IMG/VR virus record: IMGVR_UViG_2531839029_000017
Length of the DNA stretch: 4,791 nucleotides
Source of the DNA: a virus
Lineage: Duplodnaviria > Heunggongvirae > Uroviricota > Caudoviricetes
Direction: 5' to 3' (one strand)
The notes beneath the pieces were generated by a model. It was given only the letters and a program-made list of their open reading frames with translations. It did no database searches and was not told the origin of the DNA. Within the stretch, counting starts at the first letter, position 1; the number at the start of each line of letters is the position of its first letter. The translations under genes were made by a program, and so were the position numbers. Of the stretch, positions 1 to 4,791 are shown piece by piece.

Positions 1-72
1 ATCGGAAACGATGATCTGGCAGCCTGAGTTCACAGATAAAACACTCTCCAGGAAACCCGGGGCGGTTCAGAA

Positions 73-531
73 TTGCTTTTTAATTGTAGCAAAATTCAAC
101 CAGTTGAAAACAAGAAAGATGCTAATGAAACTTTAGAGTTAAAAATTATTGAGCTTCAGATGAAAATTAATAATTTAATCGTTGCATTGTCTGTCGCGCC
201 TGAAGTTACCGCTATAGCAGAGAAAATAAGACTATTAGATAAGGAATTACGAAGAGCTTTGGTATCATTGAAAACTTTGAAGAGTAAAGGTGTAAATTCA
301 TTCAGTGATTTTTATGCTATTGACTTAACCAGTAAAAATGGACGAGAGTTATGCCGTACACTTGCCTATAAAATATTCGAAAAAATCATAATTAATACGG
401 ATAATAAAACCTGTGATATCTATTTTATGAATGGCATTGTTTTTAAACACTATCCTTTAATGAAAGTAATATCCGCCCAGCAGGCGATAAGTGCTCTCAA
501 ATATATGGTTGATGGTGAGGTTTATTTTTGA
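73..531 (+). CDS. Hypothetical protein, unknown function, in AT-rich cargo segment; N-terminal half is coiled-coil-like. Start uncertain: TTG at 73 is the first start after an in-frame stop at 37-39, and the first in-frame ATG is at 160 (123-aa product).
   Basis: Six-frame ORF of 152 aa. Hand counts give about 22-25% G+C on lines 121-180 and 361-420 versus about 50% on line 1681-1740. No convincing Shine-Dalgarno before either start. No similarity that I recognise. Confidence 0.35.
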   Translation: MLFNCSKIQPVENKKDANETLELKIIELQMKINNLIVALSVAPEVTAIAEKIRLLDKELRRALVSLKTLKSKGVNSFSDFYAIDLTSKNGRELCRTLAYKIFEKIIINTDNKTCDIYFMNGIVFKHYPLMKVISAQQAISALKYMVDGEVYF

Positions 532-1032: not shown

Positions 1033-1488
1033 GTGAACCTCCCACAAGATGGCATCAAATTACATCGCGGTAACTTCACCGCTGTCGGTCAGCAGATCCA
1101 GACTTATCTGGAAGACGGCAAATGCTTTCGCATGGTGCTTAAACCGTGGCGCGAGAGACGCAGTCTTTCCCAGAATGCACTCAGCCACATGTGGTACAGC
1201 GAAATCAGTGAATACCTCATCAGCAGGGGGAAATCGTTCGCTACTTCAGCATGGGTAAAAGATGCTCTCAAACACACATACCTCGGTTATGAAACCAAGG
1301 ACCTGGTTGATGTCGTAACCGGCGAAATCACTACTATCCAGTCGTTACGCCATACCTCCGATCTTGGTACCGGAGAGATGTATGTCTTCCTGTGTAAGGT
1401 TGAAGCCTGGGCGATGAATATTGGCTGCCACCTGACTATTCCACAGAGCTGCGAGTTCCAGCTGCTGCGTGACAAGCAGGAGGCGTAA
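1033..1488 (+). CDS. ybcN: YbcN-family protein (DLP12-type nin-region protein, described as a DNA base-flipping protein)
   Basis: 151-aa ORF starting [15 protein letters not shown], near-identical to my recollection of E. coli K-12 DLP12 YbcN. GTG start at 1033 preceded by GGAGGTG (1022-1028). Lies immediately upstream of ninE, as in DLP12. Confidence 0.8.
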
Positions 1489-1658
1489 TGGCTACACCGC
1501 TTATTCGTGTCATGAACGGACACATCTACAAAGTACCAAATCGTCGTAAGCGTAAACCTGAGCTGAAGCCATCCGAAATACCAACACTGCTCGGATATAC
1601 CGCCAGCCTGGTTGATAAAAAATGGTTGCGACTGGCAGCAAGGAGGAATCATGGCTGA
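1488..1658 (+). CDS. ninE: NinE-family phage protein (56 aa)
   Basis: ATG at 1488 overlaps the ybcN stop TAA (1486-1488) by one base. Translation [56 protein letters not shown] matches recalled DLP12 NinE. Too short to appear in the supplied ORF track. Confidence 0.8.
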   Translation: MATPLIRVMNGHIYKVPNRRKRKPELKPSEIPTLLGYTASLVDKKWLRLAARRNHG

Positions 1659-1941
1659 TTTGAGAAAAGCAGCGCGTAGTCGGGAATGCCAAGTAAGAAT
1701 CCCTGGCGTATGTAATGGCAACCCTGAAACGTCTGTACTGGCACATATCCGGCTGACTGGATTGTGCGGCACCGGTACCAAACCGCCAGACTTGATTGCC
1801 ACCATTGCATGTTCTGCCTGCCACGACGAAATCGACCGCCGCACACATTTTGTCGATGCTGCATATGCAAAAGAATGCGCGCTGGAAGGTATGGCGAGAA
1901 CACAGGTTATCTGGCTGAAAGAGGGGGTTATTAAGGCGTGA
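1651..1941 (+). CDS. ybcO: YbcO-family putative nuclease (DUF1364-like, Cys-rich, 96 aa)
   Basis: [43 protein letters not shown]... matches recalled DLP12 YbcO. AGGAGG at 1641-1646 sits 4 nt upstream of ATG 1651. The track's longer start at 1612 is unlikely because it lies inside ninE with no SD. Confidence 0.8.
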
Positions 1942-2300
1942 ATACCTACAGCATCACATTACCCTGGCCTCCGAGCAATAATCGCTACTACCGGCATAAT
2001 CGCGGGCGCACGCACATCAGCGCAGAAGGGCAGGCATACCGTGATAACGTCGCCCGAATCATCAAAGGCTCCATGCTGGATATCGGCCTGGCTATGCCAG
2101 TGAAAATCCGTATTGAGTGCCACATGCCGGATCGCCGTCGCCGTGACCTGGATAATCTGCAAAAAGCCGCTTTTGACGCACTCACCAAAGCAGGTTTCTG
2201 GCTGGATGATGCTCAGGTCGTTGATTACCGTGTTGTGAAGATGCCCGTTACCAAAGGTGGGAAGCTGGAGCTGACCATCACCGAACTGGGGAATGAATGA
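1938..2300 (+). CDS. rusA: RusA Holliday-junction resolvase (endodeoxyribonuclease RusA, 120 aa)
   Basis: Translation [26 protein letters not shown]...[29 protein letters not shown] matches recalled E. coli RusA, including the acidic DxDN region. GTG start overlaps the ybcO stop (GTGA). Confidence 0.9.
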
Positions 2301-2437
2301 TGTTTGAGTCTTATATGGCAGAACGTCTTCGCCACCGCTGGATGCGCCTGCGCTTATATCGTTTTCCTGGTTCTGTTTTGACCGATTACCGGATACTGAA
2401 GAATTACGCCAAAACACTGAAAGGAGCTGCCGCATGA
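2297..2437 (+). CDS. ylcG: YlcG-family small phage protein (46 aa)
   Basis: ATG at 2297 overlaps the rusA stop (2298-2300). Translation [46 protein letters not shown]. Stop 2435-2437 overlaps the next gene's ATG (ATGA). Position between rusA and Q matches DLP12 ylcG. Below the ORF-track length cutoff. Confidence 0.6.
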
Positions 2438-3123
2438 ATACCCAATATTTACAGTATGTCCGCGAGCAACTCATTGTGGCTACCGCTGATTTGAGCGGAG
2501 CAACGAAAGGACAGCTTGAAGCCTGGCTGGAGCATGCACAATTTGATACTGGTACATACAAACGAAAGAAGCCGCGCATTCTGGATGAGGTAACTGGCAG
2601 GATGATTACGCTGGATAATCCGCCGATTTCCGGTAAGCAGTCGTACGCAAAAGGTTCATCCATTGCACTGGTCAGCCAGGTTGAGTTCTCAACCTCGTCA
2701 TGGCGCCGCGCGGTTCTGTCTCTCGAAGAACATCAGAAAGCGTGGTTGCTGTGGAGTTACAGCGAAAGTGTTCGCTGGGAACATCAGGTCACCATAACGC
2801 AGTGGGCATGGAGCGAGTTTAAGACTCTGTTGGGTACCAGGAAAATTGCAGGTAAGACACTGGAACGTTTGAAGAAGTTGATCTGGCTGGCGGCACAGGA
2901 TGTGAAGAACGAGCTGGCAGGGCGTAAGACCTATGAATACCAGGAGCTGGCATCACTGGTGGGAGTGACATCAAAAAACTGGTCTGAGACATTTACTGAA
3001 CGCTGGGTTGCAATGAAACACATTTTTCTACAGCTTGATAGCCAAGCTTTATTGCTTTTAACGAAAACACGTTCAAAACAAAAGACCACATTTTCACAGC
3101 AAGATATTGCAAAACTGGATTAA
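2434..3123 (+). CDS. Putative late-gene antitermination protein (Q-like), non-lambda family, 229 aa, no cysteines
   Basis: Occupies the Q slot: last gene of the nin operon, just upstream of a non-coding region with promoter and terminator hairpins and then the lysis genes. AAGGAG at 2421-2426 sits 7 nt before the ATG. Not similar to lambda Q as I recall it; family assignment is inferred from position. Confidence 0.5.
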   Translation: MNTQYLQYVREQLIVATADLSGATKGQLEAWLEHAQFDTGTYKRKKPRILDEVTGRMITLDNPPISGKQSYAKGSSIALVSQVEFSTSSWRRAVLSLEEHQKAWLLWSYSESVRWEHQVTITQWAWSEFKTLLGTRKIAGKTLERLKKLIWLAAQDVKNELAGRKTYEYQELASLVGVTSKNWSETFTERWVAMKHIFLQLDSQALLLLTKTRSKQKTTFSQQDIAKLD

Positions 3124-3135
3124 AAATCATATATT
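3107..3135 (+). promoter_or_regulatory. Candidate sigma70 late promoter (PR'-like): -35 TTGCAA (3107-3112), 17-bp spacer, -10 TATATT (3130-3135). An alternative is -35 TTGCCA (3154-3159) with -10 AGTAAT (3177-3182).
   Basis: Hexamer matches read by eye. By analogy with lambda, PR' and qut lie just downstream of Q. Not verified. Confidence 0.25.
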
Positions 3136-3191
3136 TTATGTAAATCTGATATTTTGCCAATGTTGTACGCACTGGCAGTAATCCAAATTCA

Positions 3192-3226
3192 AGCCCGAGG
3201 TTTAAAGCCTTGGGCTTTTCTGTTTC
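3192..3226 (+). terminator. Hairpin with 9-bp stem agcccgagg/ccttgggct (one G-U pair) and 7-nt loop, followed by TTTTCTGTTTC; candidate intrinsic terminator or 5' structure of the late leader RNA
   Basis: Read directly from the sequence. Lies in the Q-to-holin intergenic region. Confidence 0.4.
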
Positions 3227-3304: not shown

Positions 3305-3330
3305 GCCAGCTACATGCTGGCTTTTTTATT
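3305..3330 (+). terminator. Intrinsic terminator candidate (tR'-like): 6-bp GC-rich stem gccagc/gctggc, 5-nt loop, then TTTTTTATT
   Basis: Perfect stem followed by a T-run. It is roughly 150-200 nt downstream of the candidate promoters, comparable to the approximately 194-nt lambda 6S transcript ended at tR'. Confidence 0.5.
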
Positions 3331-3432
3331 CCAGGCTTGTGGGGAGCATCAACTCCGTGCTTTGTCGTTAAATTACCCCGTGAGCCTGATTTCTGACATT
3401 TAACGTCCCGGCCTTTTGTCGGCGGCGAAACA

Positions 3433-3750
3433 TTGGCTATTCATATGCACGAAAAAGAGAGCCTTGCCGGAGCGTTCTGGCTCGTTTTGCTGATCATCGC
3501 AGGTTGGGGCGGTCTGGTCCGCTACCTGATAGATGTGAAGCAGAGTAAAGCAACGTGGAGTTGGATAAATGCTCTGGCTCAAATAGTGGTATCAGGATTC
3601 ACCGGTGTTATTGGTGGCCTGATCAGCATCGAAAGTGGATTCAGTATTTACATGATTCTCGCGACAGCGGGGATTAGTGGTGCGATGGGTTCGGTTGCAC
3701 TGACGTACTTCTGGGAACGACTGACAGGGGTGAAAAATGCAAAATCTTAA
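3433..3750 (+). CDS. Putative class I holin with three predicted TM segments and a charged C-terminal tail, not lambda S-like. Possible dual start: TTG 3433 and ATG 3445.
   Basis: Three hydrophobic stretches (AFWLVLLIIAGWGGLV, INALAQIVVSGFTGVIGGLI, FSIYMILATAGISGAMGSVALTYFW) followed by [11 protein letters not shown]. The 3' end overlaps the start of the endolysin gene by 14 nt, as lambda S/R do. Sits immediately downstream of the late terminator region. Confidence 0.55.
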   Translation: MAIHMHEKESLAGAFWLVLLIIAGWGGLVRYLIDVKQSKATWSWINALAQIVVSGFTGVIGGLISIESGFSIYMILATAGISGAMGSVALTYFWERLTGVKNAKS

Positions 3751-4213
3751 TCCTCAGCGTAAAGCCTTCCTCGATATGTTGGCGTGGTCAGAAGGAACGG
3801 ATAACGGGCGACAACCGACACGTAACCACGGTTATGATGTTATTGTTGGCGGCGAACTGTTTACTGATTACTCCGATCACCCTCGCAAACTTGTCACGCT
3901 ACACCCCAAACTCAAATCAACAGCCGCCGGACGTTATCAGCTTCTTTCACGCTGGTGGGATGCTTACCGTAAACAGCTTGGTTTGAAAGACTTCTCCCCC
4001 AAAAGCCAGGACGCAGTGGCATTGCAGCAGATTAAAGAGCGTGGTGCTTTACCTATGATTGATCGCGGTGATATCCGTCAGGCAATCGACCGTTGCAGTA
4101 ATATCTGGGCTTCACTGCCGGGCGCTGGTTATGGTCAGTTCGAGCATAAGGCTGACAGCCTGATTGCAAAATTCAAAGAAGCTGGCGGAACGGTCAGAGA
4201 GAGTGAGGTATGA
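3737..4213 (+). CDS. R: Endolysin, lambda R-type lytic transglycosylase (158 aa)
   Basis: Near-identical to recalled lambda R ([20 protein letters not shown]...[31 protein letters not shown]), including the catalytic Glu in the WSEGT motif. Only the first few residues and a few scattered positions differ. Confidence 0.95.
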
Positions 4214-4671
4214 GCAGAATAACCGCGATTATCTCCGCTCTGCTCATCTGCATCATCGTCTGCCTGTCATGGGCTGTTAATCATTACCGTGATAACGCCA
4301 TTACCTACAAAGCCCAGCGCGACAAAAATGCCAGAGAACTGAAGCTGGCGAACGTGGCAATTACTGACATGCAGATGCGTCAGCGTGATGTTGCTGCGCT
4401 CGATGCAAAATACACGAAGGAGTTAGCTGATGCGAAAGCTGAAAATGATGCTCTGCATGATGATGTTGCCGCTGGTCGTCGTCGGTTGCACATCAAAGCA
4501 GTCTGTCAGTCAGTGCGTGAAGCCACCACCGCCTCCGGCGTGGATAATGCAGCCTCCCCCCGACTGGCAGACACCGCTGAACGGGATTATTTCACCCTCA
4601 GAGAGAGGCTGATCACTATGCAAAAACAACTGGAAGGAACCCAGAAGTATATTAATGAGCAGTGCAGATAG
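4210..4671 (+). CDS. Rz: Rz inner-membrane spanin (i-spanin), 153 aa
   Basis: Near-identical to recalled lambda Rz ([47 protein letters not shown]...YINEQCR). N-terminal TM segment. ATG overlaps the R stop (ATGA). Confidence 0.95.
4430..4612 (+). CDS. Rz1: Rz1 outer-membrane lipoprotein spanin (o-spanin), 60 aa, embedded in the +1 frame of Rz
   Basis: Translation [24 protein letters not shown]...[29 protein letters not shown] matches recalled lambda Rz1. Lipobox VVGC and proline-rich region. AAGGAG at 4417-4422 sits 7 nt before the ATG. Confidence 0.9.
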
Positions 4672-4702: not shown

Positions 4703-4791
4703 TTATTGTGAGCAATACACACGCGCTTCCAGCGGAGTATAAATGCCTAAAGTAATAAAACCGAGCAATCCATTTACGAATGTTTGCTGGG
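4703..4791 (-). CDS. bor: Bor lipoprotein (Iss-family serum-resistance lipoprotein), C-terminal 28 codons only; the 5' part lies beyond the window end
   Basis: The reverse complement of 4703-4789 translates to QQTFVNGLLGFITLGIYTPLEARVYCSQ-stop, matching the recalled C-terminus of lambda Bor. Convergent position directly after Rz, as in lambda. Confidence 0.75.
   Translation of the reverse strand, partial: QQTFVNGLLGFITLGIYTPLEARVYCSQ

Follow-up and report, generated by a model that had tools for sequence, protein, structure and literature searches.

What happens to lysis timing when a lambda-type endolysin and spanin are preceded by a holin that is not lambda S, and when the two possible starts of that holin enclose no basic residue? 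This question is raised by a stretch of viral DNA of 4,791 nucleotides (hereafter the window). A first-pass annotation, made from the sequence alone, had described its lysis genes as a mosaic, in which an unrecognised holin was joined to R, Rz and Rz1 of the lambda type. We have thus analyzed the family to which this holin belongs, its junction with R, the region upstream and the two starts.

Origin and gene content of the window

Over its full length, the window shows 100% identity to the chromosomes of many E. coli O157:H7 strains. Its genes form a lambdoid late-early to late region and are, in order, a recombinase fragment, NinB/YbcN, NinE, YbcO, RusA, YlcG, Q, a non-coding stretch, the holin, R, Rz (with Rz1) and bor. 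We propose that the region, which lies within the late operon, is where a lambdoid prophage of E. coli O157:H7 carries its lysis cassette. Taken as a whole with the mechanism described below, this explanation seems to us quite probable. The cassette is already annotated in public records, and every one of its genes falls into a described family. The features to which we refer in the following are:

2434 to 3123, plus strand: late-gene antiterminator Q of the phage 82 type (PF06323, E 1.4e-94; PHROG 304)
3107 to 3135, plus strand: putative late promoter, TTGCAA-17-TATATT (consensus scan)
3107 to 3218, plus strand: proposed unit made of the late promoter and a short promoter-proximal transcript ending at an intrinsic terminator (3191 to 3217 plus T-run)
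3305 to 3330, plus strand: second predicted intrinsic terminator, a GC-rich hairpin (3305 to 3321) followed by TTTTTTATT (consensus scan)
3331 to 3432, plus strand: conserved pre-holin leader, shared with phage mEp237 and holding a hairpin at 3404 to 3427
3433 to 3750, plus strand: holin gene of the PF16083 (LydA/ST64T gp13) family, 105 aa from TTG 3433 or 101 aa from ATG 3445
3737 to 4213, plus strand: endolysin R, a lambda-type lytic transglycosylase (1AM7, E 2.2e-100; PHROG 90)
4210 to 4671, plus strand: Rz, inner-membrane spanin subunit (PF03245, E 5e-53; PHROG 13)
4430 to 4612, plus strand: Rz1, outer-membrane lipoprotein spanin subunit (PF06085, E 2.8e-20; PHROG 3198)
4703 to 4791, minus strand: 3' part of bor (serum-resistance lipoprotein), whose translated C-terminus is identical to that of lambda Bor; the gene carries the name bor in RefSeq and in phage records

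The products of R, Rz and Rz1 had been described as nearly identical to their lambda counterparts, and this is what we found at the protein level (94.3%, 97.4% and 96.7% identity, respectively). R keeps the catalytic Glu19 (AWSEGT); neither Pfam nor NCBIfam returned a match for this lambda-type endolysin, which was identified through the PDB and PHROGs. Rz1 lies wholly inside Rz in the other reading frame and displays the lipobox LVVVGC, and the pair has the features of a two-component spanin of the embedded architecture. The resemblance to lambda extends to the gene order, the overlaps and the position of Rz1 within Rz as well as to the C-terminus of bor, the fragment of which is convergent with the lysis genes.

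According to the mechanism that we favor, the phage-82-type Q would enable transcription that starts at the late promoter to pass the two terminators and reach the lysis genes. The holin, with its three predicted helices, would then gather in the inner membrane and make holes at a set time, and these holes would free the cytoplasmic transglycosylase R, which would degrade the cell wall. The Rz/Rz1 spanin would finally disrupt the outer membrane.

Family and predicted topology of the holin

Far from being unrecognised, the holin is a clear member of a described family. The search against holin families that the first-pass annotation had recommended gave a match far above threshold to PF16083 (Phage_holin_3_3), with 77.6 bits for a gathering cutoff of 28.4, over profile positions 2-78 of 78. 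The protein also matches PHROG 785 (E 5.5e-40, profile positions 4-104 of 107) and is named "phage holin family protein" in RefSeq (WP_000544528.1). By tblastn, the annotated holins of Klebsiella phages are 84-86% identical to it, those of the Salmonella phages ST64T, L, PS3 and ST160 72-73%, that of the Serratia phage Eta 64% and that of a Hafnia phage 53%. Our survey of the family drew mainly on protein clusters and IMG/VR, and a scan of genome contigs gave only 11 loci.

The namesake of PF16083 is LydA of phage P1, which we liken to the window holin via the profile, 77 of the 78 positions of which are matched. In P1 the antiholin is the product of a separate gene, lydB, and is not known to come from a dual start. 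A closer parallel can be drawn with gene 13 of ST64T, L and PS3, whose product is a full-length homologue of 105 aa (72-73% identity) that likewise combines three hydrophobic helices with a basic tail at the C-terminus. As in the window, this gene is the first one after Q and the terminators and overlaps by 14 nt an endolysin that starts with ATG-CAA. It differs from the window in what follows, since in ST64T and L the next gene codes for an endolysin of 132 aa (ST64T gp19) instead of a lambda-type R.

The classical amber mutation 13-am43 of phage L maps to gene 13, the homologue (73% identical) of the window holin (PMC8022706). When the record of phage L cI-40 13-am43 was compared with that of L cII-101, a single change appeared in this homologue, CAG to TAG at Gln50, a residue that does not vary in the alignment of the family. 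On the basis of this homology, we infer that the window protein could act as a holin, i.e. carry out the timed hole formation that releases the endolysin.

The first-pass annotation had made its holin assignment depend on the presence of a membrane topology, and hydrophobic helices are indeed indicated by both hydropathy and AlphaFold2. The hydropathy profile displays a first hydrophobic segment, then a long second one holding two helices, and finally a basic C-terminal tail. In the AlphaFold2 model, computed with 32 rows, the helices span residues 2-36, 44-68 and 72-98, with a mean pLDDT of 72, which corresponds to a moderate confidence. Helices 1 and 2 are connected by a basic loop, and the C-terminal tail is also basic. 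According to this model, the protein probably crosses the membrane three times with its N-terminus out and its C-terminus in, like lambda S105.

A size of 101-105 aa would also be compatible with a pinholin, which would only depolarise the membrane instead of opening large holes. We consider this very improbable and have rejected it together with the signal-anchor-release endolysin that it would imply. The lambda-type R has a hydrophilic N-terminus devoid of a signal-anchor-release segment and would need large holes to leave the cytoplasm; the other endolysin partners of the family also start with hydrophilic residues. Moreover, the architecture of three predicted helices is like that of class I holins and unlike the two-helix S21 type. 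A holin making large holes thus remains our preferred reading.

The proposal that the holin is unrelated to lambda S held in every comparison that we made. BLASTP between the two proteins gave an E value of 9, that is no detectable similarity, and the window holin matched neither PF05106, even at E values up to 10, nor TIGR01594, whereas lambda S itself, used as a positive control, matched both (E 2.4e-30 and 2.6e-37, respectively). Profile-profile comparison (hhalign) of the window holin with the lambda S family gave a probability of 2.5%, for a match of 15 columns confined to the C-terminal tails, and we rejected homology through these tails on that account. The likeness between the two proteins is of another kind. 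Both occupy the slot of the late operon directly upstream of R and overlap R, both are of similar size (107 aa for lambda S versus 105 aa), three helices are predicted for each, with a charged tail at the C-terminus, and each belongs to a family with a dual-start arrangement. By their Pfam names, both are also assigned to "holin superfamily III"; the literature consulted on LydA holins and holin superfamilies, PMC9527704 included, yielded nothing on this assignment.

The holin/R junction and the upstream region

The first-pass annotation had located the joint with lambda-type sequence in the holin/R overlap, and alignment with lambda places it there. The two genes overlap by 14 nt, the holin stop codon being at 3748-3750, and the mismatches to lambda cluster at 3740-3753, identity resuming around codon 7 of R. 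The alignment with lambda and related phages that had been suggested gave the same picture from the side of the holin: in the eight loci aligned, conservation of the holin family extends to the stop codon, after which the sequences diverge according to the type of endolysin. The endolysin start ATG-CAA is embedded in the last codons of the holin, within this conserved 3' end. The overlap measures 14 nt in 12 of the 18 loci that we examined, and the endolysin begins with MQ in 13 of them.

Depending on the locus, this holin 3' end is followed by one of five endolysin types. The partner is of the lambda-R type in the window, in phage PhiR47_2 and in two further loci (L020 and L016). Elsewhere it is a GH24 enzyme (PF00959), a GH108 enzyme with a PG_binding_3 domain, a GH19 enzyme or the 132-aa endolysin represented by ST64T gp19, the only Pfam match of which, to Peptidase_M15_4, is below threshold (23.6 bits for a cutoff of 25). 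This arrangement explains why R begins with MQNLNP and not with the MVEINN of lambda, a difference already pointed out in the first-pass annotation: the first codons of R belong to the conserved 3' end of the holin. That the first endolysin codons are part of the holin module could be useful to specialists of phage lysis. The cassette is mosaic, as had been proposed, with a PF16083 holin ahead of lambda-type R, Rz and Rz1, and illustrates in a standard way how lambdoid phages exchange modules at the boundaries of genes.

It had also been suggested that the holin alone was exchanged. It is plausible that the holin was exchanged as a unit, because its open reading frame is bracketed by sequences that are common to different holin types. 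On the upstream side, positions 3319-3389 of the window are 80.8% identical to a sequence of phage mEp237 that there precedes a PF16080/PF04971 holin; the second terminator and the leader of about 100 nt are also common to Klebsiella phages carrying the same holin type as the window. When lambda is taken as the reference, however, the holin is not the only part that differs, since Q and the promoter region are of the phage 82 type and R itself diverges in patches. By megablast, the nucleotide identity to lambda is 94.6% between 3754 and the last position of the window; mismatches are found about every 12 nt as far as 4045 and are rare beyond (93-100% identity from about 4045). In addition to its first six codons, the 5' two-thirds of R are thus more diverged from lambda than the rest of the gene, and one patch, at 3790-3859, accumulates 20 mismatches in 70 nt for a single amino-acid change. 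Because this divergence is patchy, the sequence argues that the part to the right of the holin was shaped by more than one exchange.

The assignment of Q is illustrated by the phage 82 record X92588 (nin-Q), which is 96.5% identical in nucleotides to positions 1033-3123 of the window, from NinB through Q, where the record ends. Between Q and the holin, there is a non-coding stretch of 310 nt. By analogy with lambda, the promoter, short transcript and first terminator found there could function like pR', the 6S RNA and tR'. A match to the Rfam family isrJ at 3139-3218 is below threshold (30.4 bits for a gathering score of 37). The second terminator was also recognized in an alignment of the window with the L020 locus, mEp237 and two Klebsiella phages, where the letters of the stem vary yet pair and the T-run is invariant.

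The leader holds a hairpin (3404-3427) whose 3' arm contains GGCGG (3421-3425), a weakened Shine-Dalgarno sequence. We folded, sequence by sequence, the 37 nt ending at the upstream start codon, and a hairpin sequestering the Shine-Dalgarno sequence was predicted in all 16 loci folded, with energies of -8 to -12 kcal/mol for these single-sequence folds. RNAalifold gave no consensus structure for 12 upstream regions, the MAFFT alignment of which was gapped, and folds of 81 nt upstream had z-scores near zero, i.e. no special stability. In lambda, an upstream stem-loop sets the S107:S105 ratio, and the predicted hairpin of the holin loci recalls this element.

The two starts of the holin

The open reading frame listing confirmed the two in-frame starts of the first-pass annotation, TTG 3433 and ATG 3445, which are four codons apart in a frame open from 3397. 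Since there are only 12 codons between ATG 3445 and the preceding in-frame stop, a start-type codon would occur there by chance in about 44% of cases by our own estimate. In the alignment, TTG 3433 nevertheless coincides with the first ATG of the dual start conserved in the family, and we conclude from this that it is a real remnant of the upstream start.

In the family, the N-termini read MAKRM, MKRM, MAKHM, MAKNM, MATRM or MKM. A Lys or Arg lies between the two Met residues in 82 of the 84 cluster representatives whose gene call includes the upstream start. Among more distant relatives, the succession of GGAGG or GGGGG, a spacer of 4-7 nt, ATG, a basic residue and a second ATG was found in 13 of 14 loci, the exception (L017) having the short start only. 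The record of the Serratia phage Eta even carries the note "possible dual start motif". From the conservation of the second Met, we infer that both starts could be used across the family. The upstream start would give a positively charged antiholin and the downstream one a shorter holin, as for lambda S107 and S105.

The window departs from this pattern at three points. In ST64T and L, the gene starts with ATG-GCA-AAA-CGT-ATG (MAKRM) behind GGAGG; in the window, GGCGG is followed after 7 nt by TTG-GCT-ATT-CAT-ATG, so that the extension, (M)AIH, adds no Lys or Arg, as the first-pass annotation had observed. A second E. coli allele (L020/P0003), 93% identical to that of the window, has ATG-GCT-ATT-CAT-ATG behind GGCGG. 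Among the holin loci of this Ile-His type in IMG/VR, all of which have a lambda-type R, the upstream codon is TTG in 84 cases, ATG in two and GTG in one. Because the relatives have ATG and a basic residue behind GGAGG or GGGGG, the absence of Lys/Arg in the window allele is a derived state and TTG a remnant. The allele is thus a degenerate dual start, with GGCGG instead of GGAGG, TTG instead of ATG and Ile-His instead of Lys-Arg. This decay of the upstream start also accounts for a disagreement between annotations, since the gene starts at 3445 in RefSeq but at 3433 in the PhiR47_2 record.

The likeness to the dual start of lambda S that had been put forward thus stands at the level of the family but not for the copy in the window, with its TTG, its weak Shine-Dalgarno sequence and its lack of a basic residue. 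The dual-start motif is reportedly defined by two in-frame starts that are separated by a few codons and enclose one or more Lys or Arg residues, which TTG-Ala-Ile-His-ATG does not contain. The spacing differs too, the starts being two codons apart in lambda S and four codons apart, with an extension free of basic residues, in the window. The antiholin character of the long lambda product rests on the added positive charge. As the inhibition exerted by S107 needs this extra charge, absent here, the window allele by analogy most likely makes a holin-active protein only and no effective antiholin. Its main product would likely start at ATG 3445 (101 aa).

On the other hand, the only Shine-Dalgarno-like sequence, GGCGG at 3421-3425, is 7 nt from TTG 3433 and 19 nt from ATG 3445. 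This geometry, which the relatives with GGAGG share, favors the upstream codon, and no evident ribosome-binding site is dedicated to the short form. One could assume on this basis that the dual start remains functional, with translation initiating at both TTG 3433 and ATG 3445 and the 105-aa product being an antiholin despite its lack of Lys/Arg. This might occur via the His residue or through a longer N-terminus slowing the exit of the first helix. Such a possibility would agree with the correct spacing of TTG, with the frame open from 3397 and with the retention of the hairpin around the Shine-Dalgarno sequence, in which the A-to-C change of the window (GGAGG to GGCGG) falls on a bulged base of the stem. 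It would also agree with the conservation of the AIH extension in two diverged alleles, that of the window and L020/P0003. We nevertheless find it unlikely. The dependence of the lambda antiholin on added charge and the basic residue kept by nearly all of the relatives both speak against an antiholin ending its extension in Ile-His, and the weakening of both the start codon and the Shine-Dalgarno sequence suggests a relaxed constraint on the upstream start.

The same three changes around the upstream start, which are independent of each other, could also be viewed as an early stage of pseudogenisation, the cassette decaying in a defective prophage and its holin being poorly expressed or non-functional as a result of the weak ribosome-binding site and the TTG codon. 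In O157 genomes, an IS1203 insertion in the recombinase pseudogene abuts the left edge of the window, and the prophage that harbors another copy of the cassette in O157 has a truncated early region. We hold general decay to be slightly less likely still than a working dual start. All four lysis open reading frames are intact, and the differences between R and lambda are mostly synonymous, as the patch at 3790-3859 illustrates. Moreover, the same allele is found outside O157: holin 5' ends at least 99% identical to that of the window occur for example in an ST131 strain, and the cassette of PhiR47_2, deposited as a complete phage genome with E. coli C as listed host, is 98.8% identical.

A degenerate start in an otherwise intact cassette is thus the reading that we retain. 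We propose, tentatively and with a little less than even confidence, that the E. coli allele is a natural and widespread loss-of-antiholin variant in a holin family where the dual start is otherwise almost universal. If so, the prophages that carry it would time lysis without an intragenic antiholin, and its near-identical copies would offer a natural comparison for the contribution of the antiholin to fitness; judged by the holin 5' end, about 15% of the complete E. coli genomes have such a copy. The window allele is in any case a convenient natural variant for testing the role of the dual start outside lambda S. The high number of copies partly reflects clonal descent. The holin-R joint is present at a coverage of at least 80% in 804 of 5426 complete E. 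coli genomes, and the holin 5' end is matched in 1075 genomes, with 788 records at least 99% identical.

Signals preceding the holin gene

Just upstream of the holin, the window carries two features:

Window 3305-3432: intrinsic terminator, followed by a leader of about 100 nt
Window 3404-3427, with counterparts at the matching positions of the relative loci L004-L020: hairpin predicted by folding, with the Shine-Dalgarno sequence of the holin gene as its 3' arm

The T-run of the terminator is invariant across phages; its stem varies in sequence, with pairing kept. The leader of about 100 nt is conserved 5' of the PF16083-family holin in Klebsiella phages, and in phage mEp237 it also precedes a holin gene of an unrelated family. 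Holin exchange may use this leader as a common linker.

The hairpin containing the Shine-Dalgarno sequence was predicted in all 16 of the holin loci that were folded, with arm sequences that differ between loci. In the window, its bulged base is the site of the GGAGG-to-GGCGG change. In lambda, the relative amounts of the two S products are set by a stem-loop upstream of S. The predicted holin hairpin may be the counterpart of this lambda structure.

A dual start is, judging from the sequence of one relative, not obligatory in the PF16083 holin family. Indeed, the holin of Serratia sp. PL17 (L017, 2501-2815) has the short start only; a GGAG of its own lies at close spacing, and no in-frame start was found upstream of this short start.

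A possible short late transcript

A third element lies further upstream:

Window 3139-3218: isrJ-like segment, Rfam match of 30.4 bits

This match to isrJ, a Salmonella sRNA, is sub-threshold (gathering score, 37). It ends at a terminator (3191-3217), and a promoter-like site (3107-3135) is located just upstream of the segment. The segment resembles the short promoter-proximal RNA that a phage with a Q82-type antiterminator makes from its late promoter, a resemblance suggesting that isrJ itself may be a prophage leader RNA of this kind.

Patchwork divergence of the endolysin gene

The divergence of R from lambda is uneven: 20 mismatches in 70 nt at window 3790-3859, with one amino-acid change only, then moderate divergence at 3902-4045. 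Beyond about 4045, the two sequences are nearly identical across the rest of R and all of Rz, Rz1 and the bor part. At the sequence level, this pattern implies further putative recombination breakpoints inside R. In the deposited genome of phage PhiR47_2 (L001, 4638-5113), R is split into two CDS by the loss of one nucleotide from a stretch of five C, at the equivalent of window 3996; the deletion probably reflects a sequencing error at the homopolymer rather than a genuine defect of the endolysin. The Rz1 gene (window 4430-4612) is intact, and its product shares 96.7% identity with lambda Rz1; the RefSeq O157 records examined carry no annotation for Rz1.

Left edge of the window

In O157:H7 genomes, a recombinase gene is split by an IS1203 insertion, and the window begins where this insertion ends. 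One ORF lies close to this edge:

Window 73-531: low-GC ORF (31-36% GC)

This ORF, for which no Pfam match was found, overlaps the C-terminal fragment of the recombinase pseudogene (window 67-531).
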